A stretch of DNA of 63,689 nt, the filler included. It is 7 parts of 7 records of this genome, joined end to end, with 100 filler letters (N's around TTAATTAATTAA, not from the genome) between each part and the next. Parts side by side here need not be neighbours in the genome. Positions count along the whole stretch, not along the records: positions 11,281 to 21,469 come from SRR31147125_15484; 6 more parts are not named here. The stretch is one strand, 5' to 3'. The notes under the pieces are model-generated. The model saw only the letters and a list, made by a program, of their open reading frames with translations, did not search any database and was not told where the DNA came from. Position 1 is the first letter of the stretch; every line of letters begins with the position of its first letter. The position numbers and the translations under genes are program-made. Shown in pieces: positions 11,181 through 57,606 of this stretch.

Positions 11181-11280
11181 NNNNNNNNNNNNNNNNNNNN
11201 NNNNNNNNNNNNNNNNNNNNNNNNTTAATTAATTAANNNNNNNNNNNNNNNNNNNNNNNNNNNNNNNNNNNNNNNNNNNN
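11181..11280. other. Artificial contig linker (N-TTAATTAATTAA-N)
   Basis: 100 nt of N with a central six-frame stop 12-mer. Confidence 0.99.
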
Positions 11281-11873
11281 GTTTTTTCCATTTCCATCTG
11301 AAGCAAAACAGTCTAGTGATTGGTTGTTGTTGCGTAAGAATATCTTGGTACAAGTTTGTGGCACAGGCTAGTATTCCCAATCACAAATTGCTGATAAATT
11401 ACTCAGACTAAACTTTCGGATAGGGTAACTCATAACAATCAGTGAGAAGAGATAGGAAAGGAACAACTATAAACCATAACATATCCAAAGAATCCCTTAA
11501 ATTTAGTAGCTGCTCATCGAGTTTAACATTGCCTCGAAGGTCTGAATTTTCTACCAACGCTTCAAGTTTAGACTATTCCTGTGCAGCTAATGTTCCGCCT
11601 GTCTTGGGACGTAGGCTTTTCGTGTAGGTGCGGTTTCCGAACAGAGACAGGAACAACCTAAACGGTAAAATTATCAAGATAGCCGAGCTTGCCAACAAAC
11701 ACTTTGAATCGCCTCTTTTAATATCGAGTGAATCCAGATAGAATTGCTTAATCAAGACTTTTAACCTGGGTCATCTAAAGTGATATTTCTTATACTTTTG
11801 GGCGACTCTGGTTTTTTCGAAAATAGATCTGTCGTATATCATACATTAGGCGAATTAAAGGTTCGAGTCCAGA

Positions 11874-13229
11874 ATGGAAAACAACAATAATAGTGTAAGC
11901 CCGCATATTTTAAAGATTGAACGTTGGGATGTAGACTTACCTACAGGTGATTGGAGTGGACCAGATCCACTACCTCTTTATCCAAGTCTTGATAAAGCCA
12001 AAGGCACTGAAGAAGCATCGCGAGCGTTTAGAGAAATACATATCCAATTTTATCCGACCAAAGAACAAAATCAGAAGATCTTGAAATGGGTGAGTGATAA
12101 AATCCCTGAGGATGTTAAGTGGCTATTTCATGGGCTAGAAGTAAATTATATTCAATTCCAAAAGCTTTTTCTTGCACTCCCATCAGTCCATCTTAAAAGC
12201 GAAGCAGAAAATAGTGACTTAAAATCTCAGCATCCTGAGGTTTACGAAGATGATTGGGATGCACGCCTGGATGTTTATCGCTCAGATTTTCTTCAATATC
12301 TAGAAGAAATCCACTGCTCGTTTCAATTTGTTACAGAAAATGAGGCGGAAGACAATGGAATGCTAGAAATAATGGGTTATAAGCGGCCAAGCTTTCTTCT
12401 CTCCTACGACACCTATCCAGGTAATAACAATCCCCCTAACAAGCTTTGGAAATACCTAACTACTTCAAAGTTTCTAGATATGCTTCGGAATCGATCTATC
12501 TGGTTTTCCCGCCCACAATATTTTGATGATCCACATGAGTTTACGGTGGATATACCATCTCAGCGTAGCCTGTTTCAATGGAAATTGGACTCGTTTGCTC
12601 GTTCATACAATCGCGCTGTCGTCAGTAAGCAAACATCTTACACATCTGCATCGATACCACTAGTAGCAGGGCTTGATCTAGATGAGTTAGGAAAAATTAA
12701 TAACTGCCCTATATGCCTATCTCAATTATCTGAGACACTACTTGCTTCTATCAAAAAGAATATTAGAACTTGGCAAGAGTCATTTTTTATATCGTGCTGG
12801 CGCTATAGCCCCTATGACTCTGTTGCTATTTGGAATCAATATGCATCGCTGGAAGAGGGCGTAGCTATAGTTGCTGATCTGGATTGTCTTCGCGAATCTT
12901 TTGAAAAATTTGGTGATATTAGAATGGCAATAGTCGAATACCGCGACTTTGCTGATGAGTCGATTGCACCAATGACAAGGAACCCACTTACATATAAAGA
13001 TGTTCGATTTTCATCGGAAGAGGAAGCAAGATTTTACTTTCGAGCCAGGCTAGGAAGTGAAAAAGGCTTAGCAGTACGGTTTGAACTAGCTGATGTGATA
13101 AAAGAAATTCATTTACCCCCAAGCTGTAATGATTCTTGCAAAAAATTGGTTAAAAAGTTGCTAGAAGAATATGGCTTTGATATTACAATTTTAGAATCTT
13201 CGCTAAGTAGAGTCCCTAGTAAATTTTGA
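11874..13229 (+). CDS. DUF2971-domain protein with ~185-aa unknown N-terminal extension; probable gene cassette
   Basis: LWKY..., FDDPHEF, FISCW...SVAIWNQYA...GVAI, VEY, K...FSSEEEAR motifs. Confidence 0.75.
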   Translation: MENNNNSVSPHILKIERWDVDLPTGDWSGPDPLPLYPSLDKAKGTEEASRAFREIHIQFYPTKEQNQKILKWVSDKIPEDVKWLFHGLEVNYIQFQKLFLALPSVHLKSEAENSDLKSQHPEVYEDDWDARLDVYRSDFLQYLEEIHCSFQFVTENEAEDNGMLEIMGYKRPSFLLSYDTYPGNNNPPNKLWKYLTTSKFLDMLRNRSIWFSRPQYFDDPHEFTVDIPSQRSLFQWKLDSFARSYNRAVVSKQTSYTSASIPLVAGLDLDELGKINNCPICLSQLSETLLASIKKNIRTWQESFFISCWRYSPYDSVAIWNQYASLEEGVAIVADLDCLRESFEKFGDIRMAIVEYRDFADESIAPMTRNPLTYKDVRFSSEEEARFYFRARLGSEKGLAVRFELADVIKEIHLPPSCNDSCKKLVKKLLEEYGFDITILESSLSRVPSKF

Positions 13230-13272
13230 ATAGGACTAATAATTTACTAAATATGATAATTCTCAAAATTGC

Positions 13273-13333
13273 GTCTAAAAATGCGCTCGTTCGGACGCAC
13301 TTTACATCGCGTCATAACTCTTAAACGTTGAGA
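13273..13333 (+). mobile_element. Degenerate attC site
   Basis: GTCTAAA (R'' with AAC>AAA), ATGCGCTC..CGGACGC..GCGTC core, AAC-GTTGAGA (R'). CGTCTAA at 13272 is a 1-mismatch complement of TTAGGCG at 11846, upstream of the DUF2971 gene. Confidence 0.5.
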
Positions 13334-13520
13334 CTGTCAACTTAAACATCTCTAGTTTCTTCATTACCAAAAACAGAACCTTCTTCCTGTATCTCTCCAG
13401 AATTGTCCTGTCATCGGCAATCACTGGGGTATGCTTGTCAGTCACAAATCGGAAAAATAATTTATGCCCCCAGAATTCACAGATTTAATTCATTGACTCA
13501 TGGTCGTAGTACATAGGAAA

Positions 13521-13640
13521 GGGGAGGTAATCGGCTGATAATACCTCCCCCCCGGTCGACTTGGTCAGATCTAAATTAACTACACTAGCCTCCAGCAGAG
13601 TGTATGGACATTTAAGTCCATCAATCCCTAGCTAGGAGGA
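13521..13640 (+). promoter_or_regulatory. Structured leader (three hairpins plus a palindrome overlapping the RBS) upstream of the 75-aa ORF
   Basis: GGGGAGGTA/TACCTCCCC (13521-29/13542-50), TACACT/AGTGTA (13581-86/13599-604), ATGGAC/GTCCAT (13604-09/13616-21), CCTAGCTAGG running into AGGAGG. Confidence 0.55.
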
Positions 13641-13647
13641 TATCTGT

Positions 13648-13875
13648 ATGTGGAAAGCAATCAGTAAACTGTGGCTCACTGCCTCGCTAATGATCGATAC
13701 GGTAGATTCAGCAACACGAACAGTGAATAACGTTGTAACTATCGCAGAGGCTCACAGTGAGAACTTCAAAGCGGTGAGCATGGCAGAACTTTCCGCCAAG
13801 CAAGCCACGGCTGAAGCTAGAGCGTCCGCAACTATTGCATCACTTGACGAAGTCAGATCCTTGGCGGCAAATTAG
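13648..13875 (+). CDS. Small 75-aa Ala-rich helical protein, phage early-gene-like
   Basis: Strong AGGAGG RBS with correct spacing, followed by a terminator; amphipathic N-terminus MWKAISKLWLTA. Confidence 0.7.
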   Translation: MWKAISKLWLTASLMIDTVDSATRTVNNVVTIAEAHSENFKAVSMAELSAKQATAEARASATIASLDEVRSLAAN

Positions 13876-13885
13876 AAGAATCTGT

Positions 13886-13914
13886 GGGACCGTTTAGGCG
13901 GTCCCTTGTGTTTT
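13886..13914 (+). terminator. Intrinsic terminator
   Basis: GGGACCG-TTTAGG-CGGTCCC followed by TTGTGTTTT, 10 nt after the stop codon. Confidence 0.7.
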
Positions 13915-14321
13915 CGAGAACACATTCACAGTAAGCTAGTCATAGCTATGAATAGATTGGGGTGAGGCCGTTTATGCAAAGAATTGAACCTTCTGATATG
14001 AGCACAATATCTCCCCAATATTCCAGTTTACCGCGAGGCAGTTAGGCCAGTTTGGTTTGTCATATACTGCGGTTGTATAACTGGCGTAAATCATCAAAAA
14101 GCAGTGTCAGGTTTAATCTCTAGTGATTGTTGGTAGAATCTAATCCTGCTATTCATATACCACATTTATCTCGTAATTATAAAGAGGTAGCAAGAATTTT
14201 TGATTGCCAAAAGAGGCTTGTTAATGCTACATTGGTTGTCAGGATCGAGCGTGAGATCAATGAAACATCCCAGAAAAGCTGCAGCGATAGATTAAAAGTT
14301 ATCTCCTAAGGAGGAACTCAA

Positions 14322-14912
14322 ATGCCCACAAAATTATCTTTGACAACGTTTGTTGATATAGTTTCCGCATCTGGCACCTCTAAGGCCACAAAAACTAGAA
14401 AGGCATTGAATGGAGAAGAGTACCACCCTGCAAAAGATTACTACAAACCGATTCGAGAAAGGATAATTCAATTACATGAAGGAAATGAGGAAAGGAGCTA
14501 TCTGACTGGCTACCTTCCAAAGGTATCAGACAAAAAGAAAATTAATAATTACTATACAATTATAGAAAGTTACAGCAAATGGTTGGGTAAAAAGAAAACT
14601 AAGTGGTTTACACCACCTCATGGTGAATATGGGACTAGTACTGTATTAATTAGGGTAAATCCGGAGTTAGGCCTAAAATTTAATGGCAAGAAACACATAG
14701 TTAAATTGTATTTCAAATCCGAACCATTGTCGAAAAACAAGGCAGACATAATTATGGGGTTAATGAACTCATCCCTAAAGAATGATTCCATAATGTCTGT
14801 TTTGGATATTAGGCAACGTAAATTATTTATACCTACGATTGAAATACCAATGTTAAAAGAAACTGTAAATGCCGAATTAGCATATATATCTGCATTTTCA
14901 ATGATAAAATAA
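14322..14912 (+). CDS. Conserved-looking basic hypothetical protein (196 aa), integron gene cassette
   Basis: AGGAGG RBS; flanked by exactly complementary cores GTTATCTC (14298-305) and GAGATAAC (14922-29); VNPELGL...IVKLYFK may be a degenerate PD-(D/E)XK core. Confidence 0.75.
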   Translation: MPTKLSLTTFVDIVSASGTSKATKTRKALNGEEYHPAKDYYKPIRERIIQLHEGNEERSYLTGYLPKVSDKKKINNYYTIIESYSKWLGKKKTKWFTPPHGEYGTSTVLIRVNPELGLKFNGKKHIVKLYFKSEPLSKNKADIIMGLMNSSLKNDSIMSVLDIRQRKLFIPTIEIPMLKETVNAELAYISAFSMIK

Positions 14913-14922
14913 ACCAAATCTG

Positions 14923-14986
14923 AGATAACCAGCTAATAAACACGGGCCCACAAACAGCGCACGGGCCGGTTATCACAACGTTATAG
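14923..14986 (+). mobile_element. attC recombination site (64 bp)
   Basis: R'' AGATAAC, L'' TAATAAAC, inner arms CGGGCCC/GGGCCG, L' GTTATCA, R' GTTATAG; lies between two tightly packed co-oriented ORFs. Confidence 0.8.
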
Positions 14987-14995
14987 AAAGGAAAA

Positions 14996-16159
14996 ATGAC
15001 ATCTCTTTCAACCAGATCACATCATGTGTTTGTTGACGAGTCAGGAGATCCTAGTCTTGATTTGGAGAAAAAAGGTGTCAGTAAATTCTATGTTGTTACA
15101 GCAATATTATTGCCATCAGATAATGTTGATATTGCAACATCAGAGGCTGGTTCGATCATTAAACAATACTGCCAATCTGGAGAATTAAAGTCTAACAAAA
15201 TCGAAAATATCAAAAGACGAGAGAAAATCATTGATGATCTTGTATCAAAAATAGATTTCAAGCTTTACTCTCTGGTTATTGATAAATCAGCTATTTATAA
15301 AGATAGTGGTTTGCAGTACAAAAAGTCATTTATCAAATTCTTAAATGGTAAGTTATACAATCCATTATACAAATCATTTCATGAGCTCCATGTTAAAGTA
15401 GATGAGCATGGCCACTCTGAGTTTATGAAAAGTTTTGAAAAGTATGTATTGAAAAAACATACTCCACGTCTTTTTGAGCAATCATCCTTCCAACATGTAA
15501 AAAGCAGAGAAACACCATTGGTTCAGCTTGCAGATCTTTTTGCTGGGACAATATTTCGCTGCTACGCTGGAAAAGATGATTTTAAAATTTTAAAGCTTTT
15601 CCAACTCCAGACCTTGATAATCGAACAGTGGCCCCCATCAATTAAACACATATCTAGATATGAAGAATCTAGAAAAGTTGAAAATTTTGATTTGGTAGCA
15701 AGAGAGCAAGGATTAAACCTCACAAAAATATTCATTCAAGAAAATGAAAGAGAAACAGAAGAAGATATAAAACTACAAGTTGCCACTCTAAATTTTCTTC
15801 TATACCAATATACAGTAATTAATCCTGAGAAGTATGTTTCTACTAATGAGATTATATCTTATCTACATAAAATATCTGATACCGATGATCTAATAGGGGA
15901 ACATAAGTTTCGAACAAAAATAATTGCAAAAATTAGAGATGCGGGTGTTATAATAGCATCTAGTGATAAAGGCTATAAAATACCATATCTTGCCAAAGAT
16001 ATTAGTGATTATGTAAATAAAGTAAGTGGTTTGGTTGTCCCATCCCTTGGCAGACTAGAAATAGCCAGAAATCATATTCTATTATCAAGCAAAGGTGAGT
16101 TTGAAATCGTTAGCAAAGAGCACTTCCCTGAACTTCATGAATTAATTATAGGAAAATAA
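14996..16159 (+). CDS. DUF3800 (RNase H-like) protein with C-terminal winged-helix-like domain, integron gene cassette
   Basis: VFVDESGD and QLADLFAG motifs; C-terminal IIAKIRDAGVIIASSDKGYKIP wing; flanked by GTTATAG (14980) and CTATAAC (16164). Confidence 0.8.
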   Translation: MTSLSTRSHHVFVDESGDPSLDLEKKGVSKFYVVTAILLPSDNVDIATSEAGSIIKQYCQSGELKSNKIENIKRREKIIDDLVSKIDFKLYSLVIDKSAIYKDSGLQYKKSFIKFLNGKLYNPLYKSFHELHVKVDEHGHSEFMKSFEKYVLKKHTPRLFEQSSFQHVKSRETPLVQLADLFAGTIFRCYAGKDDFKILKLFQLQTLIIEQWPPSIKHISRYEESRKVENFDLVAREQGLNLTKIFIQENERETEEDIKLQVATLNFLLYQYTVINPEKYVSTNEIISYLHKISDTDDLIGEHKFRTKIIAKIRDAGVIIASSDKGYKIPYLAKDISDYVNKVSGLVVPSLGRLEIARNHILLSSKGEFEIVSKEHFPELHELIIGK

Positions 16160-16163
16160 ATAC

Positions 16164-16222
16164 CTATAACCAAACGCTCCACTCGGACTCGCTGATGCTC
16201 GCCAGTAAATTTGACGTAGCTT
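16164..16222 (+). mobile_element. attC site, degenerate R' end
   Basis: CTATAAC-CAAACGCTCCACTCGGAC...GCCAGTAAATTTGAC-GTAGCT. R'' exactly complements the cassette start; the R' GTT is damaged. Confidence 0.65.
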
Positions 16223-16247
16223 ACAGTCATATTTAGTATGATAGCAT

Positions 16248-17240
16248 ATGTCTAGCATAGGAATTAAGTATAGGTATGCTCTTGACGACAGAGGTCAATT
16301 AGTGGACATAGCTTGCCTTAGTGAATCTGACCGCAAGGATTACATATGTGCTGGCTGTGGAAATATTCTTCGTCCAGTCCTCCCTAGATCTTGCAGACAA
16401 AAACATTTTAGACATAAATGTGATCATAATTGTTCAGTTGAAACCTACTTGCACCGCTTGGGTAAAATATTATTTGAGGATAACTATAAGAGATGTTTGC
16501 AGGAAGGAATACCCTATGAAATAGAATATCAGGTTCCAATTCTGTGCGATGCATGTGATAGCGGCCCTTGCGAAACAGACGCAGTTATCAAGAGCTACGA
16601 CCTGACTAAACAATTTAAAACTGTGTTGGTTGAAAAGAGAGATGGGGAATTTATACCTGATGTTCTCATCATAACTTCTAGTTCTGAAAAGATATATATT
16701 GAAATTGCAGTTACACATATGTGCACATCAGAAAAAGTGAATTCTGGTGAGAGGATAATTGAGTTTTATGTCAATGATGAAGATGGATTAGAAGTATTTT
16801 CCCGAAGCTCTCTTACTTTAGATGATCATAGTGTTGATTTTTACAACTATAAACCAACGCCTATTATGCAGTCCAATAGCAATGAATGTAAGCGCCTTGT
16901 GCATTATTTTATTGTTTTTCCTAGTGGTAAGTGCCGCATTGCTACTTGTTCATTGTATGAATTTAATAATTTAAAGAAAAAAATAGGATTTTATTTCAAT
17001 AAAGTTCCACATGCTTCTTCATACTATTTTGCTAATGAAGTAGAGCGAGCGTATAAACATGGAATAAAGATTAGAAACTGCTATTTATGCCGATATCATG
17101 CGGAAGCAAATTGGTATCAAAGTGAGGACGGGACTTGTTCCATATTCTGTAAGACTTATCGAAAATCGACAATATCAACTCGGGCTTGTGATTGTGATAG
17201 GTATAGGGTTGACCCCAAAGTATTCCCATCAGTCAGTTGA
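16248..17240 (+). CDS. CoiA-like PD-(D/E)XK nuclease with N- and C-terminal Zn-binding clusters
   Basis: YICAGCG...HFRH...CSVETYLH; FIPDVLI...IYIEIAVTH; C-terminal NCYLCRYH...C..C...C. Confidence 0.7.
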   Translation: MSSIGIKYRYALDDRGQLVDIACLSESDRKDYICAGCGNILRPVLPRSCRQKHFRHKCDHNCSVETYLHRLGKILFEDNYKRCLQEGIPYEIEYQVPILCDACDSGPCETDAVIKSYDLTKQFKTVLVEKRDGEFIPDVLIITSSSEKIYIEIAVTHMCTSEKVNSGERIIEFYVNDEDGLEVFSRSSLTLDDHSVDFYNYKPTPIMQSNSNECKRLVHYFIVFPSGKCRIATCSLYEFNNLKKKIGFYFNKVPHASSYYFANEVERAYKHGIKIRNCYLCRYHAEANWYQSEDGTCSIFCKTYRKSTISTRACDCDRYRVDPKVFPSVS

Positions 17241-17260
17241 ACTACCAGATTATTTACACA

Positions 17261-17851
17261 TTAGCTATAATGGCGTTCCTTTGATGTTGCCCAGGAACGT
17301 GTGCTAGCCTGCTCTAACTCGGCAGATAGCCAGTCGAATGTAGTTTGGTGCATTCCCTTGGGCTTTTTCCATATGGGCCATGATAGGTTGTTGCTGTCCC
17401 CTAGGCGCTCGCGGATTTTGCGCGTCTTTCTCATCATCCTATATTCTTCGTTTTCCTGCTGGCTGGCATATGTTAAACTGTGGCAGTGTCTGCAATAGAA
17501 CCCTGGTGTGACATAATACAGGACAGCTACACGTCGGCCACAGTGACCACACTGGAACCATTTCCTTGATCCTCCGTAGTTACAACCGGTAGTCTCGAAC
17601 TTGATGATCTGTTTTGTTGGTTTATGTACTCTGTCTTCTGATACCTGGTTGTACTGCAGAACAAGCATGTCCTCTCGTATATGAAACTCAACTGTTCCCA
17701 GTCTGGTTTCACCTATTGACCAGGTGAAGGTCCCATTGAGGTTAGAATTCAGATACCCGTATTTTTTTAGCTCGCGGATATCTATGGAGGGAACTCTTTC
17801 AGTTGCCTTCTTTGTCTTTTTGCCAGCAGATGCATTTAATCCAACACCCAT
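17261..17851 (-). CDS. Zn-finger hypothetical protein of the kind found in integrative elements/phage satellites
   Basis: GCNYGGSRKWFQCGHCGRRVAVLY...CRHCHSLTYASQ...RLG...KPKGMH signature. Confidence 0.7.
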   Translation of the reverse strand: MGVGLNASAGKKTKKATERVPSIDIRELKKYGYLNSNLNGTFTWSIGETRLGTVEFHIREDMLVLQYNQVSEDRVHKPTKQIIKFETTGCNYGGSRKWFQCGHCGRRVAVLYYVTPGFYCRHCHSLTYASQQENEEYRMMRKTRKIRERLGDSNNLSWPIWKKPKGMHQTTFDWLSAELEQASTRSWATSKERHYS

Positions 17852-18000
17852 TACTCATAACCTCTAGTATTAAATCGAAATCAAAAGGAAAATTTGAGCC
17901 TATAGCTCATCTAATTAACCGATTTAAATTATACCATGGACCTGAAACGGATGTTTGAGAATATCCGCTCCAGCATACCCAGCAGCTCCGACGAGCATAA

Positions 18001-18290
18001 TGTGAGGCCCATTCTCGCATCTGGTTATGCTTCCGCTACCAACAGGCTAGAATCGTGATCTTGCAGAATGATTGTTTAAAGGCTAAGAGCCGAGAACCAA
18101 AACCGATATGCGGCCGATATGTTAATCGTAGATGAAGGTGTTTGTTTCAAACCAGTTGGGTGAAATCTCATTAGTGCATTATATGTTGGAGCATATACCG
18201 ATCAATTTTTCCGTGCGACATTGTGGTATTTTCATTACGAAGACTTGTGAGATGTCCATTCTCGCAGCTGACTTTTCCTTCCGCTACCAA
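18001..18290 (+). repeat. Imperfect ~45-bp direct repeat (18001-18042 and 18246-18290), each copy ending in CTTCCGCTACCAA
   Basis: TGTGAG..CCATTCTCGCA.CTG....CTTCCGCTACCAA aligned by eye in both copies. Confidence 0.75.
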
Positions 18291-18594
18291 ATGGGTAGAT
18301 TAGTTAATAGCAACGAGGAAAAATTACAGTACTTATTACAGTATAAATCCTATGTGCCCGAAGTTAAGTGCTATAATATTAGACTCATAAGGTTGTAATG
18401 TGGTGGACGCCTCGCCCACCAGTTATTTCAGCAACTTACAAACTTTTCGATAATACTGATCGGAAGCCTTTTCGCTGGTATTACGCTATCTTGTTTTGAA
18501 ATGAGAGAATGCGGAGGTCGGAATCGAATTTAATATGATTAGTATTTTATTTTCAGATAGATAGCAAGCAGTACCTAGCGTGGATATTCTCAAT

Positions 18595-18725
18595 TAGTCA
18601 CATTTGTAGTCACATTCCTCAAAGCTTGCTGGACATACTTGCGACGGAAGGCAGCGTTTAAGGTCGGCCGTGCTGGTTCAAATCCAGTTGAGCCACCTCT
18701 TTCTTAAGATTGAGCCAGGTGACTA
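18595..18725 (+). mobile_element. att-like site: tRNA 3'-half remnant flanked by arm-type repeats
   Basis: T-arm GCTGG-TTCAAAT-CCAGT then TGAGCCACC (18672-97); TAGTCACATT twice (18595, 18607) and inverted GTGACTA (18719-25). Confidence 0.5.
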
Positions 18726-18759
18726 GTTGGTAAGGAAGCTTGGATACCATAATCTAATC

Positions 18760-21069
18760 TCAAGTCACCCTAACTCGAGCTTCAGTTCTCAATCGAACTG
18801 GAACCAGTTCAGGGATGCGGTCTCTTATAAGTTGGTATAATTTGGCATCATTTCTCGAAAATTCAACATTAACAATCGCTGCGTACTTAATCTTCCCAGG
18901 ACTCTCTGGGCCGTATTCCCAGTCAGAGCGTGATAACGCATGAATATCGAGACATGGGTGTTTGACTCCAGATACACGCATTTTTGTCCAACAATGTTCT
19001 ACTGTATCCCAGATCCCCTCTTCTCTGCGTTGCTGTTCATTCCTCTTGGGGGGCCTGGTACTAGCATGCGTGCTCTGCTTTCTACCTTCAGCAATATAAG
19101 CTTTAACCCTGTCAGCTTGAGTGATCAAGTTAGCTTTTTTAGAATTAGGGTTATTCCCCTTTAAGGAGAATGTGAAAACATCAGAGTGCGGTCTAAATGA
19201 AATTTCAGCACCAGCCAATGAATATTCATCAGGCATAGATGGGGCAATTCCGGTTGCAAAAACAAAAGTCCATCGAAAAGTTACATACCCACCACTAACA
19301 GCATCTTCAAAGAATGGTATTTTAAGGCGTACACATTTTGTGAAATCGATCTCGCCGTTATAAATAACGGATACCGCCTGATCAGTACATTTCATTATAT
19401 CTTCAGGCAAATGAGGAACGGCTCCCCAACCATAGTTGGGGTCCCAAGTTTCACATCTTTTCGCATTGTGGATTAGTAAGGCTTTTGCCGTTTGAGGGGT
19501 TACTACAGTGTGATCATCAACGCGATGGAGTAAATGTCCTGCTAATGATGAAATCACTGGTGCCGCAAAGCTCGTTCCGGTTACCCCAGCACATTTTCCA
19601 CTTCCACCCGCCAGAAATACATTAAATAGTTGTCCCTCTCCTCCTCCAAAAGCGTGTACATCCGGTTTGATAGCATTTCCACATCGGCCAGACCCGGCAC
19701 AACTGTAGCTAGCTGGTAGCATGCTGCCGTCTTGGTCTTGAACATATGCTCCGACACCAATCCCATTTATTATGTCAGAAGGAGGTTGAATCCTGTTAAA
19801 AGGAGGTGCATGTTTGCCTTTATTGCCTGCTGCGACAACAAACAGTACATCTTTTTCGTATGCAAGCCTGTCTAGCGTTTCTGTAAAAGGATCAATTTCA
19901 TCATCTTCTATTGGATAATCGGGCCCAAAGCTCAGCACAAAGGTTTTAATTTTGGGATTGTTCTCTACTGCCTGTTCAATCCAATCTAATATTTTGTAGA
20001 GGTCGAGGTGGATCCCCTTGACTGTCGGTACGGGGAATATACGAAATGACTTAACCTGAATAGAGGGTTTACTGTAGGAAATATTGGGATCATAGGGACC
20101 GTATAAAACAGCCCCGCATACTGCAGTCCCATGTTTGACGCCGTCTACATCCTCAGCTGCGGGGGTTAAATCTTCAGGCACTACCCAAAGTCCTAAATGA
20201 GGAATTGTCGTGTCAACACCTCCATCGAAAACCCCTATTTCAGGGACTTCCCCAGTACGGAAAGTGCCGCCTTTAGGGACTGGCCCTATGTCCAATAGCG
20301 AGTTATCGTCAATACGCGGAAACGAAATGCCTGGCATAACTCTAATTGACCGCAATGGGTTAAACTCTGACAAGAGATTTAAGGTGTTGTGATTTACTTG
20401 TGCAGGTAAGAATCTTGGGGATTTTGTAGAGCTACTACGGACCCAATCAAAAAGAAACTCGGGGTATTCGTTTGAAAGCAAAATGTCTTTAAGTTTCCAA
20501 AGACACTCATCCCAGTCTGATTGAGACATAGAGTGTATAATCAACTCTACCAAAGTATTGTCATGGATTTCCTGAAGCCGTTCCAGCTTTTTTTCAGGAT
20601 TAATTAATTTCACAGAATCAATTCTCAACACTTCTTTCTGGATAGTTTTTGTAAGACCAGCTGGGTACTCGAGGCTATTCTTAAAAAAAGTGATTGAATC
20701 CGGAGAGCCTCTGAAATAGAGCCTTCGACTTTGTTTCTCATTTATTTTAATCCCATCCCTATGCTTCTGGTTCCAGGCTATCGACCCCATCAGGTCCCAC
20801 CTAGCAGCAGACACAGTGGAGTGAGGGAAATAGCTTTTAGCAACATATGAGGAGTCCATATCTACGCAAAAATAAACACCATTTTTTATGCGATGTTTTT
20901 CGGGGATATCGCTTGCTGATCTCGCTAAATCTTCTAGTTGTGGTATTAACCTCTCCTTGGCTGATTCAAAGTCACGAATTTCGTATTTTTTCCCAAAACC
21001 AGAACTTAAGCTAACAGCACCTGTAATCCGTTCACCTTTCCCCAGGACAGGGAAGAACTCTTCGCTCAT
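18760..21069 (-). CDS. ietS: S8 subtilisin-like serine protease, IetS-type (Y4bN-like)
   Basis: Catalytic D (IGVFDGGV), H (HGTAVCG), oxyanion N (AAGN), S (GTSFAAP); no signal peptide; 4-nt overlap with the upstream AAA ATPase. Confidence 0.85.
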   Translation of the reverse strand: MSEEFFPVLGKGERITGAVSLSSGFGKKYEIRDFESAKERLIPQLEDLARSASDIPEKHRIKNGVYFCVDMDSSYVAKSYFPHSTVSAARWDLMGSIAWNQKHRDGIKINEKQSRRLYFRGSPDSITFFKNSLEYPAGLTKTIQKEVLRIDSVKLINPEKKLERLQEIHDNTLVELIIHSMSQSDWDECLWKLKDILLSNEYPEFLFDWVRSSSTKSPRFLPAQVNHNTLNLLSEFNPLRSIRVMPGISFPRIDDNSLLDIGPVPKGGTFRTGEVPEIGVFDGGVDTTIPHLGLWVVPEDLTPAAEDVDGVKHGTAVCGAVLYGPYDPNISYSKPSIQVKSFRIFPVPTVKGIHLDLYKILDWIEQAVENNPKIKTFVLSFGPDYPIEDDEIDPFTETLDRLAYEKDVLFVVAAGNKGKHAPPFNRIQPPSDIINGIGVGAYVQDQDGSMLPASYSCAGSGRCGNAIKPDVHAFGGGEGQLFNVFLAGGSGKCAGVTGTSFAAPVISSLAGHLLHRVDDHTVVTPQTAKALLIHNAKRCETWDPNYGWGAVPHLPEDIMKCTDQAVSVIYNGEIDFTKCVRLKIPFFEDAVSGGYVTFRWTFVFATGIAPSMPDEYSLAGAEISFRPHSDVFTFSLKGNNPNSKKANLITQADRVKAYIAEGRKQSTHASTRPPKRNEQQRREEGIWDTVEHCWTKMRVSGVKHPCLDIHALSRSDWEYGPESPGKIKYAAIVNVEFSRNDAKLYQLIRDRIPELVPVRLRTEARVRVT

Positions 21070-21469
21070 AATGTGCCCCTACCTTCATGTTTTTTAATAA
21101 TATTAGAAACTTGTGTATGGGATATCCCAAACATTGTTCCAAGTTTGCGATAGCTGAAAAATTTTGGTGATAAAGCTCGGGCCTTGACGAGAAATGAGAC
21201 TACAGCATCATCATGTAGCCCCCTCCCAACTATTTCTTCGGAAAGCTCCTGCCAGATAGCCTCTCTTGAAGGCGTACTATCTAAAATTTCTAATGATTTC
21301 ACTCTTTTTACGAATGACAAGAGATCTGCACCGGTAGCGCCTTCTAACCCTAAAGCAGCTAATTCCAGAAATTGCTTTGAACCTTTATTGCCGTAATATT
21401 TCTTTAATATAATTTGCCTCTCAGCAAGCCCTGGAAGTGGAAGCTCAATCCACCTTGAAAATCTTCTTT
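21066..21469 (-). CDS. ietA: AAA+ ATPase C-terminal part with terminal HTH, IetA-type, 5'-truncated
   Basis: Frame is open to the contig edge: RRFSRWIELPLPGLAERQII...EGATGADL (arginine-finger/lid region), then FSYRKLGTMFGISHTQVSNII HTH. Confidence 0.75.
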
Positions 21470-21569
21470 NNNNNNNNNNNNNNNNNNNNNNNNNNNNNNN
21501 NNNNNNNNNNNNNTTAATTAATTAANNNNNNNNNNNNNNNNNNNNNNNNNNNNNNNNNNNNNNNNNNNN
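21470..21569. other. Artificial contig linker
   Basis: N44-TTAATTAATTAA-N44. Confidence 0.99.
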
Positions 21570-23557: not shown

Positions 23558-24885
23558 ATGAAAGTTTTGCTTTTGACGGCCCCCAGGCCTATGGAGGGCT
23601 ACTCACCGGTCCACTTCGGGGACAACCGGCCGCCCCAGGGACTGGGGTATATTGCCGCATATCTTGTGCACCACGGGCATGAGGCTGAAATTGTTGATCT
23701 CTACGCCTTTGGCGGAAGCAGGGTCAAAAAGAACGTCTCGGTAAGCCAGGAGGAAATCGGTGATTCTCTGGATATTGATATTGATCAGGTTATTAAAGAG
23801 TTTTCACCTGAGTTCATCGGAATGTATGTCCATACCATGTCCTTTGAGTCTGCCTGTGAACTTTCTTTGCGACTGAAAAAGGCGTATCCGGATATTCAGC
23901 AGGTCTGTGGCGGTCCCCACCCCTCAATCAAGCAGGAGAGCATGCCTCTGTCCTTTGATTATGTAGTTGCCGGCGAGGGGGAATTCGCCATGTTGGATAT
24001 TGTTGAAGGCCGGGTAACGGAACGAATGGTCAGTGGAAAGCAGATGACATCTTCGGATATAGAGAATTTGCCCTGGCCGGATTTTGATCATTTTTGGGGA
24101 AAGCCTTACAATTTTAAACTTAAATTGTTCAACAAGGATATCGAGCCTGTCCTGACGATTAGTACCAGCAGAGGGTGCCCTTCCGATGCAAGTTTTGCGG
24201 AGCAAAAGAAATTTATCCCCGCTATGCCAATATTTCTGCAGACCATGTTTTTAATCGCATGGTTGAACTCAGAGAGCGATACGGGGTTGATGCCTATTAT
24301 TTCCGGGAAGATAATTTTACTGCCAACTTAACCCGGTTGAGGCGGTTTTGTGAACTGATTATTGGGTCGGGAATCCCATTTAAATGGGTTTGTGAGAGCC
24401 GGGTTCGGGAGCTGTCCCCTGAAATGATAACCATGATGGCCAAATCCGGATGCATTGGATTGTACATCGGCTGTGAGAGTGGGAGTAACAGGGTGCTCAA
24501 GCTGATGCAAAAAGATGAAACCGTTGAGGATTATATGGAAAAATTTCCCCTGCTGCATGAAAACGGAATTTCCACGTATACCACCTGGGTATACGGAACA
24601 CCGGGGGAGCGTTCGGAGGACAGGCATATGACGGACGAGATCATTCGGAAGCTAGGGCCGACAGAAGCAGACCGCTTTGTTTATATCGGCATACCAAGAA
24701 GTGAGTGCTATGATGAGATCATCCAGGAAAAAGCCTATGAATTCATTGATCAGAACGGGTTTATGTATCCCAACGGCTATCTGAGTCTCAGTCGGGCGTT
24801 GTACGGAATAGCCGACCCAAGGGTAACCTATGTGGATAGGCTGTACCGTGAGCATGGAATTACCCCTGTGGAAAAGCCGTGGTAG
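23558..24885 (+). CDS. B12-binding radical SAM protein, apparent 1-nt frameshift at ~24178
   Basis: PPQGLGYIAA, GGPHPS, GEGE B12-binding domain. Adding one C restores SRGCPFRCKFC; the C-terminal frame has EDNFT and IGCESG. Confidence 0.85.
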
Positions 24886-27337: not shown

Positions 27338-27687
27338 ATGGAAAAAAAGCCCATTAAGGTGGCGATTCCCCATGTGGGGGATGATGAAATAGACGCTGTC
27401 AGCCGCGTCCTTAGATCGGGTAACTATGTGTCCGGTCGGCAGGTGGCATTGTTTGAAGAAAAATTTGCAGATTATATCGGCGTGGACCATGCCGTGGCGG
27501 TTAACAGCGGTACCGCAGCCCTTCATATTGCTTTGGATGCCCTGGGGGTTGGGGAAGGGGACGAAGTTATTGTCCCTCCGGTTACTTTTTTTGCCACGGT
27601 GTCTGCTGTGCTTTACTTGGGGGCCAAACCGGTGTTTGCCGATATCGACCTTGATGATTTTGCCTCTCCCCTTTGGATACTGCCCGA
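27338..27687 (+). CDS. DegT/DnrJ/EryC1/StrS aminotransferase, 3'-truncated
   Basis: VNSGTAALH, GDEVIVP, TFFAT, GAKPVFADID. Confidence 0.9.
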
Positions 27688-27787
27688 NNNNNNNNNNNNN
27701 NNNNNNNNNNNNNNNNNNNNNNNNNNNNNNNTTAATTAATTAANNNNNNNNNNNNNNNNNNNNNNNNNNNNNNNNNNNNNNNNNNNN
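27688..27787. other. Artificial contig linker
   Basis: N44-TTAATTAATTAA-N44. Confidence 0.99.
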
Positions 27788-39089: not shown

Positions 39090-39189
39090 NNNNNNNNNNN
39101 NNNNNNNNNNNNNNNNNNNNNNNNNNNNNNNNNTTAATTAATTAANNNNNNNNNNNNNNNNNNNNNNNNNNNNNNNNNNNNNNNNNNNN
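39090..39189. other. Artificial contig linker
   Basis: N44-TTAATTAATTAA-N44. Confidence 0.99.
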
Positions 39190-42583: not shown

Positions 42584-43813
42584 ATGAAAAAATTGCTCAT
42601 ATTGGGTGCCGGAACTGCAGGAACTATTATGGCAAATAAGCTGAGCCAGCATTTAAGTACCGACGAGTGGCACATAACTATTGTCGATAATCATGAAACG
42701 CATTACTACCAACCCGGATTTTTGTTTATTCCTTTTAATATATATTCACGAAATGATGTCATTAAACCGAAAAGAGATTATTTACCATCGTCTGTAGAAA
42801 TTGTCATGTCCGAGATTGAGGTCATTGAGCCGGATAAAAATCGTGTAAAACTGGCAAACAATCAGGTCCTCAGTTATGATTATTTGATTGTGGCAACCGG
42901 ATCTAAAATTAAGCCCGGAGAGACTGAAGGATTGCAGGATGGTGGTTGGTACAAAAATATATTTGATTTTTATACCATCGAAGGAGCTTGTCAATTACAA
43001 AAGTTTCTGAAACATTGGGAAGGTGGCAAACTCGTACTCAACATTGTTGAAATGCCCATTAAATGTCCTGTCGCTCCTTTGGAATTTCTGTTTTTGGCTG
43101 ACTGGTGGTTTACGGAAAAGGGTATTCGGGATAAAGTGGATTTGACTTTTGTAACCCCGCTTCCGGGTGCTTTTACCAAGCCTAAAGCGTCACAAATTTT
43201 GAATTCCTTTTTGGAAAAGAAAAATATTAATCTTGTTTCCGAATTCAATACCGGTTCCGTTGATTCAGAAAACAACAAACTGGTCTCATTTGATGAACGG
43301 GAAGTTGATTATGATTTACTTGTTACAATACCCACAAATATGGGTGATGAAGTTATTGAAAGATCAGGTATGGGAGATGAATTGAATTTTATCCCAACCA
43401 ATAAAAATACCTTACAGTCAAAACAACATGAAAATATTTTTGTTATTGGAGATGCAACAGATCTACCAAGTTCCAAGGCTGGCTCTGTGGCGCACTTTCA
43501 GGCGGATGTGTTAACTGAAAACTTTTTACGCCATATCGAAGAACTTCCATTGATGGAAAGCTTTGACGGCCATGCTAACTGTTTCATTGAATCCGGATTT
43601 GGCAAAGGCCTGCTTATTGATTTTAACTATGACGTTGAACCCTTGCCCGGCAAGTTTCCTTTACCTGGCGTCGGACCGTTTTCTCTTCTGCAGGAAACAA
43701 AGATGAATCATTGGGGTAAAATGATGTTCCGATGGGTTTATTGGAATTTATTATTAAAGGGCCTGGAGCTTCCTATTGAGGCACAAATGAACATGGCAGG
43801 AAAAACCCGATAG
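42584..43813 (+). CDS. sqr: Sulfide:quinone oxidoreductase-like flavoprotein (type III-like)
   Basis: GAGTAG, HYYQPG, IKCPVAPLE, IGDA, SKAGS, DGHANCF. Confidence 0.85.
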   Translation: MKKLLILGAGTAGTIMANKLSQHLSTDEWHITIVDNHETHYYQPGFLFIPFNIYSRNDVIKPKRDYLPSSVEIVMSEIEVIEPDKNRVKLANNQVLSYDYLIVATGSKIKPGETEGLQDGGWYKNIFDFYTIEGACQLQKFLKHWEGGKLVLNIVEMPIKCPVAPLEFLFLADWWFTEKGIRDKVDLTFVTPLPGAFTKPKASQILNSFLEKKNINLVSEFNTGSVDSENNKLVSFDEREVDYDLLVTIPTNMGDEVIERSGMGDELNFIPTNKNTLQSKQHENIFVIGDATDLPSSKAGSVAHFQADVLTENFLRHIEELPLMESFDGHANCFIESGFGKGLLIDFNYDVEPLPGKFPLPGVGPFSLLQETKMNHWGKMMFRWVYWNLLLKGLELPIEAQMNMAGKTR

Positions 43814-46287: not shown

Positions 46288-46387
46288 NNNNNNNNNNNNN
46301 NNNNNNNNNNNNNNNNNNNNNNNNNNNNNNNTTAATTAATTAANNNNNNNNNNNNNNNNNNNNNNNNNNNNNNNNNNNNNNNNNNNN
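46288..46387. other. Artificial contig linker
   Basis: N44-TTAATTAATTAA-N44. Confidence 0.99.
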
Positions 46388-57308: not shown

Positions 57309-57506
57309 ATGGCATTAGCAACAGAAGTCTATAAAGCATTTGAAGATGTAGTTGGAAAAAGAAATATATCACAGGACACAGGCGTGCTTGAAACTTATAG
57401 ATGTATTGCTCCGCAATCATCTGCACACTATGGTCCTTATGACCATAAGACGCCTTTGCCGCAGGCAGTTATACTACCTGGCAGCACAGAGGAAGTACAA
57501 CGTGTT
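57309..57506 (+). CDS. Second FAD-binding oxidoreductase, 3'-truncated
   Basis: DVVGKRNIS...PQAVILPGSTEEVQ. Confidence 0.8.
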
Positions 57507-57606
57507 NNNNNNNNNNNNNNNNNNNNNNNNNNNNNNNNNNNNNNNNNNNNTTAATTAATTAANNNNNNNNNNNNNNNNNNNNNNNNNNNNNNNNNNNNNN
57601 NNNNNN
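57507..57606. other. Artificial contig linker
   Basis: N44-TTAATTAATTAA-N44. Confidence 0.99.

Follow-up and report, generated by a model that had tools for sequence, protein, structure and literature searches.

How does a stretch of about 0.4 kb, laid out like the left end of an N4-type phage genome, come to lie among bacterial defence genes? N4-like phages are mostly considered strictly lytic, and only the polymerase that they inject can use their early promoters. Such a unit is not expected in a bacterial contig; it could be a fossil, or else a device triggered by phage. The window analysed here, 63,689 nucleotides (nt) in all, is a pseudomolecule in which short contigs of 6-11 kb are concatenated through six N44-TTAATTAATTAA-N44 linkers; the unit lies at ~13520-13915, in the contig from record SRR31147125_15484. 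The first-pass annotation had read it, by inference, as a captured N4-like terminus with its first gene. Ordered DNA motifs and the protein family independently lead to one and the same slot of a single phage family, which argues for a diverged N4-like left-end unit. At a rough probability of 60%, we take the unit for a diverged, captured copy of the early transcription unit at the left end of an N4-like (Schitoviridae-type) phage genome, from a lineage not yet described.

Elements of the unit

The C7-GGT tract, hairpins, ribosome-binding site, helical open reading frame (ORF) of 75 amino acids (aa) and terminator listed in the first-pass annotation are all present, at corrected coordinates. 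The first hairpin below had been overlooked.

13521-13529/13542-13550, plus strand: perfect 9-bp hairpin with its 3' arm entering the C tract; 12 pairs including the inner ATC/GAT
13547-13553 (C7) and 13554-13556 (GGT), plus strand: C7-GGT box
13581-13604, plus strand: imperfect promoter-like hairpin, TACACT-A-GC-CTCCA-GC-AG-AGTGTA
13588-13596, plus strand: core of the promoter-like hairpin, GCCTCCAGC, with loop centre C13592
13602-13608, plus strand: GTATGGA, with a predicted TATGG initiation box at 13603-13607
13604-13609/13616-13621, plus strand: leader hairpin ATGGAC-ATTTAA-GTCCAT, 6 bp, at the predicted 5' end of the transcript
13634-13639, plus strand: Shine-Dalgarno (SD) sequence AGGAGG, 8 nt 5' of the ATG at 13648
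13648-13875, plus strand: 75-aa ORF, gene of the single-helix protein
13886-13905, plus strand: intrinsic-terminator-like hairpin GGGACCG-TTTAGG-CGGTCCC, with a T-rich tail to 13915

Two of the hairpins fold better than nearly all shuffled versions of themselves. The one at 13521-13550 has a DNA folding energy of -10.1 kcal/mol (z -3.1) and the leader hairpin a z of -3.6, with one in 200 shuffles as good in each case. The C7 tract is the sole run of at least six C on the plus strand. A sigma-70 scan of 13200-14350 gave three sites against 2.5 expected, none of them 5' of the ORF on its strand.

Comparison with the left ends of N4-type phages

The left end of N4 (NC_008720) has a C9 tract, the hairpin GTTGC-TTC-GCAAC, TTAT, the leader hairpin GGACA-TGT-TGTCC, GGAG, and the gp1 ATG at 154, while the N4 P2 promoter reads GAAGC-TCC-GCTTC-TTTT-GGA; the hairpin-promoter pattern given in the first-pass annotation is therefore accurate. 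Homologues of gp1 occur at the left end of many N4-like phages (138 records by tblastn, eight of them fetched). Our left-end alignment holds seven gp1-type ends, from N4 and six further Schitoviridae, which have a common order: a tract of C6-9, a GC-TCC/TTC-GC hairpin, T/GTATGG, a leader hairpin at the GG, an SD sequence and a small first gene. GGT directly follows the C tract in four of the seven and T/GTATGG is present in six, with the GC-TCC-GC core being the rule.

Of the 10 phage left ends for which upstream sequence is available, nine have a tract of at least six C 5' of the first gene. The exception is Philippe, with no such run in the 160 nt before its gp1 homologue; a small ORF (303-425) is annotated within that stretch. 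Across the Schitoviridae left ends examined the tract is C6-C12 and precedes the first early promoter in nine of ten, often as C6-7GGTAT, and most gp1-type phages also have a ACCCTACCCC box between the C tract and the promoter. No description of the C tract or the ACCCTACCCC box was found in the accessible portions of the literature.

The window unit has the same order of elements as the N4 left end, and the stretch TATGGACAT and an ATCAATC stretch in the leader are common to both. A tract of at least six C precedes the putative promoter (C7, 13547-13553), and GTATGG, leader hairpin, SD sequence, small first gene and terminator follow. As in N4 positions 1-520, a leader hairpin lies at the start site, the loop core is of the TCC type with GC on both sides, the SD spacing agrees, and past the small first gene come a hairpin and a run of T. 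Its size is close to that of one terminal repeat: N4-like terminal repeats are ~400 bp according to the available text of PMC3896407, and the annotated terminal repeat of Axy24 (1-410) takes in the C tract together with the promoter and the larger part of gene 1. By inspection, N4 (gp1) and pVa5 (ORF0105) also have a hairpin and T run past the first gene, and N4, HN05 and Gutmeister a G-rich/C-rich hairpin ahead of the C tract. The leader hairpin has counterparts in N4 (GGACA-TGT-TGTCC) and pVa5 (ATGAC-AATTAC-GTCAT). In contrast to N4, the unit has the 9-mer GCCTCCAGC in place of a 7-mer, with a broken stem; its C tract is ~36 nt from the promoter rather than ~53 nt; its protein has 75 aa whereas gp1 has 108 aa, homology to gp1 not being demonstrable (hhalign 10%); and it lies away from a DNA end, without the remainder of the phage.

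The Pontosvirinae vibriophages pVa5 (KX889068, ORF0105) and 1.026.O (MG592410, gene 001) have a C10/C12 tract, a hairpin with a 3-nt loop, a leader hairpin and a small ORF. Their hairpins, AATCCC-tac-GGGATT in pVa5 and AACCTC-tac-GAGGTT in 1.026.O, differ by stem changes that are therefore compensatory. The window unit resembles them in having a small ORF (62 aa in the phages) behind a C tract, hairpin and leader hairpin, and by inspection all three have GTAGTAC ~30 nt ahead of the C tract. It differs from them in that the tac loop with CAC/GTG stem (seven copies in pVa5) is absent from the window, and in that a long run of small early ORFs follows the first-slot ORF in the phages. Within the first 8.6 kb of the early strand of pVa5 (KX889068.2) we observed seven xCAC-tac-GTGx hairpins, each followed by AA[AG]. 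These tac-loop hairpins are likely early promoters of the Pontosvirinae virion polymerase; the word 'hairpin' is absent from the pVa5 paper.

The putative promoter and its start site

The promoter-like hairpin consists of 2 bp (GC/GC), an internal loop (A / AG) and 6 bp, closed by the 5-nt loop CTCCA, and it is the weakest element of the unit; the first-pass annotation was right to call it imperfect, with its 5-nt loop and broken stem. The accessible part of PMC4496689 describes N4 early promoters as hairpins with stems of 5-7 bp and loops of 3 nt, their GC-rich heptamer being centred at -11. In the window, the inner TCC of CTCCA equals the loop of N4 P2, with the centre C giving a template G, but a C.A mismatch replaces a closing pair, and the 9-mer core GCCTCCAGC resembles the GC-TCC-GC heptamer of N4-type early promoters enlarged by two bases. 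For the early promoters of the Pseudomonas N4-like phage LUZ7, mapped by ONT-cappable-seq, the available text of PMC9163698 gives a start G 13-14 bp after the hairpin centre. The window has G13606 at 14 nt after C13592, a LUZ7-type spacing (the N4 distance is 11 nt). Applying the N4 ruler from -8 instead, 8 nt past the C of the 3' GC is A13604, the first base of the leader hairpin. In contrast to the stem of at least 4 bp and conserved 3-nt loop described for LUZ7 in that text, the window has 2 bp, an internal loop, 6 bp and a 5-nt loop.

How often do such motifs arise by chance?

CCCCCCGGT occurs once in the window, and at least one copy was found in 8 of 100 shuffles. The composite CCCCCCGGT-N30-60-TATGG also occurs once, at the locus, and in none of the 100 shuffles; it was found in 4 of 13 fetched loci, every one at a left end. 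Its expectation is 0.0019 per window, estimated from 200 Mb of composition-matched random sequence. In a 200 Mb simulation, the fraction of random TATGG sites whose GG carries a hairpin of 5 bp or more was 0.0098, with an SD sequence plus ATG downstream 0.010, and with a GC.?T[TC]C.?GC core upstream 0.0015. A hairpin of at least 6 bp begins at only 2 of the 67 [GT]TATGG sites of the window. All of these patterns were devised after both sequences had been viewed, and the product of the fractions therefore overstates the case for a phage origin, with the first two terms alone still being small.

Perfect N4-style hairpins were also observed within coding DNA of the window, ATTGC-TCC-GCAAT at 57405-57417 (plus strand) and TTTTGC-TCC-GCAAAA at ~24193-24207 (minus strand); two of the four GCTCCGC heptamers in the window are flanked by at least three further complementary bases. 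The hairpin at 57405-57417 has TATGGTC/GACCATA 16 nt downstream. Both are probably due to chance.

The 75-aa protein and its relatives in vibriophages

AlphaFold2 with a 21-row family alignment models the protein as a single helix (residues 2-74) with a predicted local distance difference test (pLDDT) score of 83. A word-indexed protein search found one relative with 74% identity, and an exhaustive search found six at E <= 0.001, five of which are 62-73 aa; the other, P0006 (1585 aa, repetitive), is a composition match and was excluded from all alignments. A profile search retained 20 family clusters from 590 candidates among 5.8 billion, making this a rare family, with members of 62-75 aa that lie nearly all on short metagenome contigs. 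One member (P0020) is present on 11 contigs, the longest being 68,983 bp; for P0001, P0015 and P0014 the contigs measure 36,121, 21,413 and 10,334 bp. In the 21-row alignment, A3, five columns are invariant and 11 more nearly so; the window protein retains all five of the former, and its gene is intact and family-typical.

Other collections returned little. Two scans of 185,579 GTDB representative genomes, with narrow patterns that distant members could escape, yielded 51 and nine pattern matches, none of which was confirmed as a relative. No DNA or protein match was found in a plasmid collection, nothing for the protein in Pfam, NCBIfam, PADLOC or PDB, and no usable match in the ESM Atlas. 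PHROGs gave no consistent family (21 different families over the 21 members, with the best E, 0.0007, coming from one member alone), and pVa5 ORF0105 likewise matched no PHROGs family.

The sole phage similarity found for the family is the first-slot ORF of Pontosvirinae. Searching the phage collection by tblastn with one member (P0020) matched six records with E 0.1-0.7, all of them Schitoviridae (Pontosvirinae) vibriophages, and all six matches fall on one small ORF behind the C tract. Comparing A3 with this ORF alone by hhalign gave 68%, and with a 7-row phage-side profile (A4) 87% (P 3.8e-6), ungapped over columns 1-51 from Met1. With 16% identity over 51 columns, this is a remote match. 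Nevertheless, none of 250 column shuffles of A4 reached the real score of 32.9 (shuffle mean 8.9, maximum 20.3; reversed profile 10.2), and pVa5 ORF0105 ranks first among the 397 pVa5 ORFs of at least 40 aa, scoring 27.2 vs 17.5 for the next. Downstream of ORF0105 there follow a long series of small ORFs and the two RNAPII genes. At the profile level, the N-terminal 50 residues thus agree with the Pontosvirinae first-slot family. The comparison of A3 with N4 gp1 gave 3.3% for the single sequence and 10% (P 0.003) for a 9-sequence profile, columns 10-33 aligning with 9-32 in the same register.

Evidence against a phage origin

A number of results weigh against the assignment to an N4-like phage. 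No homology of the locus to known left ends was detected by four methods: an nhmmer profile of the seven left ends gave nothing at the locus at E <= 10; a covariance model (R1) placed the locus second of 10 matches, at 8.5 bits (E 1.5), below an unrelated neighbour; Smith-Waterman alignment to nine phage left ends gave z 0.2-2.0, and between 57 and 410 of 1000 shuffles did equally well; and blastn against 50,697 phage records found nothing. The best covariance-model match, at 13343-13466 on the plus strand (11 bits, E 0.41), directly upstream of the unit, was treated as noise, its alignment showing no C tract or hairpin. By tblastn against the same phage records, the window protein and the members P0012 and P0007 also found nothing. 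A match of P0004 in the vRNAP (virion RNA polymerase) gene of a Rhizobium N4-like phage, at E 4, was set aside as noise, and homology of the 75-aa protein to N4 gp1 itself is not shown.

The fold of the promoter-like hairpin is not significant (-4.5 kcal/mol, z -1.7, equalled by 12 of 200 shuffles). It has no continuous stem of the length seen in N4 (5-7 bp) or LUZ7 (at least 4 bp), and its 5-nt loop CTCCA, or a C.A mismatch at the closing pair, is non-canonical vs the 3-nt N4 definition. The 10.2-kb contig carries no vRNAP, RNAPII or other Schitoviridae gene, the neighbouring genes have no Schitoviridae match in similarity searches, and the unit is not at a DNA terminus; the hallmark genes and terminus by which a Schitoviridae genome or provirus would be recognized are thus missing. 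Isolated N4-like phages infect Proteobacteria according to the available text of PMC7650795, while the other contigs of the window look clostridial and are tied to that of the unit by binning only. What stands of the proposed captured terminus with its first gene is the order of elements, the intact, family-typical gene and the remote Pontosvirinae protein match; DNA homology, a terminal position and other phage genes do not.

The contig and its neighbouring genes

Since the six linkers join separate contigs, gene neighbourhoods across them are not real, and several genes are cut at linkers, for example a DegT-type gene at 27338-27739 and an ORF starting at 57310. The linkers, the contig and its remaining features are as follows.

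11181-11280, 21470-21569, ~27688-27787, 39090-39189, 46288-46387 and 57507-57606: N44-TTAATTAATTAA-N44 linkers
11281-21469: contig carrying the unit, 10.2 kb, bounded by the first two linkers
11874-13229, plus strand: DUF2971/PDC-S31 gene (PADLOC PDC-S31, 1.5e-12)
13369-13404, plus strand: left copy of an imperfect direct repeat (GAACCTTCT ... TATCTCTCCAGAATT), possible insert border
13979-14022, plus strand: right copy of the imperfect direct repeat, possible insert border
14322-14912, plus strand: 196-aa gene of a widespread bacterial hypothetical family
14996-16159, plus strand: DUF3800/PDC-M04A gene (PADLOC PDC-M04A, 4e-11)
16248-17240, plus strand: 330-aa gene of no known family
17261-17851, minus strand: 196-aa gene of no known family
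18760-21069, minus strand: IetS-like S8 protease gene (PADLOC IetS, 3.8e-53)
21072-21467, minus strand: C-terminus of IetA, last 132 residues (match 3.7e-11)

The unit is internal to its contig, 2.2 kb and 7.5 kb from the ends. Its neighbours match the PADLOC models for IetAS, PDC-S31 and PDC-M04A, and with these genes on the unit's own contig the description 'among defence cassettes' is right; the 75-aa protein itself matched no PADLOC model. The IetAS pair (18760-21467, minus strand) is truncated by the contig end, with the IetS-like gene downstream of the IetA remnant. Polysaccharide genes found either side of this contig sit on other contigs.

GC content rises from ~0.36 to 0.45-0.50 between the two direct-repeat copies, across the unit. 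Together with the repeats this may mark the borders of an insert of ~0.6 kb, a weak indication given that short two-copy repeats often arise by chance. In the 415-nt gap past the terminator we also observed a 60-aa ORF with a TTG start (14127-14309, plus strand). Its stretch YKEVARIFDCQKRLVNATLV resembles a helix-turn-helix, and the ORF may be a gene remnant.

The clostridial look of the other contigs comes from a DnaD-domain protein with a PRK06835 loader and from a selenoprotein-type sulfide:quinone reductase. The ORF for the latter (42584-43813, plus strand) matches the NCBIfam selenoprotein-subtype type III sulfide:quinone reductase (E 1e-202) and is uninterrupted over 409 aa. The window has no Rfam match at gathering score, with only sub-threshold noise near the locus, and a window scan found no tRNA or tmRNA. 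By exact look-up, a collection of 15 billion proteins contains neither the 75-aa ORF nor any of 10 other proteins of the window.

Proposed origin and alternatives

By default we take the unit for a fragment that was captured recently and is still intact, and we rank fossil or recent capture above domestication. Capture would have been illegitimate, the captured part being the phage end that is first to enter the cell. The unit would then present, in order, a C-tract/GGT box, a variant hairpin promoter for the injected vRNAP, a leader hairpin, a ribosome site, the gene and a terminator. Host polymerase presumably does not start at the unit because no sigma-70-like site was found. It would be read, if at all, by the virion polymerase of a cognate infecting phage, giving a single-helix early protein from a transcript that ends at the terminator. 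With no host-type promoter, the unit is therefore probably silent until such a polymerase arrives.

Two kinds of known systems offer comparisons. Satellites and islands such as P4 with P2, and the phage-inducible chromosomal islands (PICIs), respond to helper-phage transcription signals. As in those systems, the window would have a chromosomal element that is silent until a transcription factor supplied by the phage arrives. However, its neighbourhood is without an integrase, replication or packaging gene, and the signal would be a polymerase-specific promoter rather than an activator site. Integrated N4-like proviral regions, as reported in the available portions of PMC10654107, are alike in placing N4-like DNA within bacterial contigs, including a Firmicutes case with a chimera caveat. 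They differ in being whole or large proviral regions with hallmark genes, whereas the window has ~0.4 kb without one.

Among the alternatives, domestication fares best, although we consider it unlikely. The unit would then be a silent cassette that is switched on only by an N4-like virion RNA polymerase, and would serve as a polymerase sink, an infection sensor or a source of an interfering first early protein. In line with this, the gene is intact and family-typical, the sigma-70 scan found no host-type promoter, a strong upstream hairpin and a downstream terminator insulate the unit, and it is placed among IetAS, PDC-S31 and PDC-M04A genes. As far as the accessible text of PMC4496689 goes, plasmid-borne N4 early promoters are implied to be transcribed in vivo on infection, because that transcription is lost in ssb-1 hosts, and N4 gp1 is reported, in the part of the literature available, to be necessary for middle promoter use; both points favour domestication, the former also our main reading. 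The 2026 structural paper PMC13434306 describes, in its available portion, an N4 virion polymerase that is membrane-anchored and present at 4 +/- 1 copies per virion. So few copies imply that a decoy would be effective, but the membrane anchor argues against easy access to a chromosomal site, which counts against a domesticated cassette and also against the phage reading in general. Domestication is further opposed by the lack of a second example in the two pattern-limited genome scans, by the non-canonical hairpin, and by the terminator and ~415 nt of non-coding DNA that part the unit from the downstream genes.

A more specific form of this idea is distinctly unlikely. In it, the defence island would hold a phage terminal-repeat/early-promoter unit as a polymerase-specific tripwire, silent until injected vRNAP reads it and then diverting the polymerase or making an interfering early protein. 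The uses suggested in the first-pass annotation (a phage-polymerase switch, a dominant-negative early protein, or a terminus/packaging signal for a satellite) are speculation.

It is improbable that the resemblance is a coincidence and that the unit is an ordinary small bacterial or island gene, expressed from its own weak host promoter or by read-through, with a C tract and hairpins unrelated to N4. Generic similarity tests were all negative, as such a gene would have it, and the promoter-hairpin fold is not significant. AGGAGG sites are ordinary, single-helix proteins readily yield weak profile matches, and the tblastn lead had E 0.1-0.7. These points have to be set against a composite motif expected 0.0019 times per window even without the hairpin, SD and core terms, and against protein and DNA that independently indicate the same slot in the same phage family. 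The hhalign controls are clean (0/250 shuffles; rank 1/397), and the family was not found in the two pattern-limited scans of the representative genomes.

An assembly or binning artefact is very improbable. It would require either a chimeric join of the unit to the defence genes or a 10.2-kb contig from another element or organism than the rest of the window. The make-up of the window from concatenated 6-11 kb contigs, the local rise in GC and the absence of all 10 window proteins from the 15-billion-protein collection are in keeping with it, and a published survey warns, in its accessible portion, of chimeric assemblies for N4-like sequences in Firmicutes contigs. Nevertheless, the unit lies well inside its contig, imperfect direct repeats flank it with no abrupt break, and no other phage gene lies alongside. 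Finally, an attC/integron cassette was rejected on the absence of such repeats from the window repeat families, in agreement with the first-pass annotation that the unit is not bounded by attC cores, as were a riboswitch or small RNA on the Rfam scans and a type I toxin on the long soluble-looking helix (mean hydropathy at most 0.65).

Significance

We found no report in the literature of an isolated, intact N4-like early unit in a bacterial defence island. For phage annotation, the C tract before the first early promoter (9/10 left ends) and the seven tac-loop hairpins of pVa5 may serve as aids. If the unit is a fossil, the DNA end that is injected first can be captured, and the unit is the trace of an N4-like lineage that has not been sampled and whose first gene belongs to a new family. 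Use by the host would make it a sensor or decoy that responds to a phage polymerase, and were the tripwire true, immunity would be keyed to the promoter of a phage enzyme instead of to a protein or nucleic acid of the phage. In that case a truly clostridial contig would further point towards vRNAP phages of Firmicutes.

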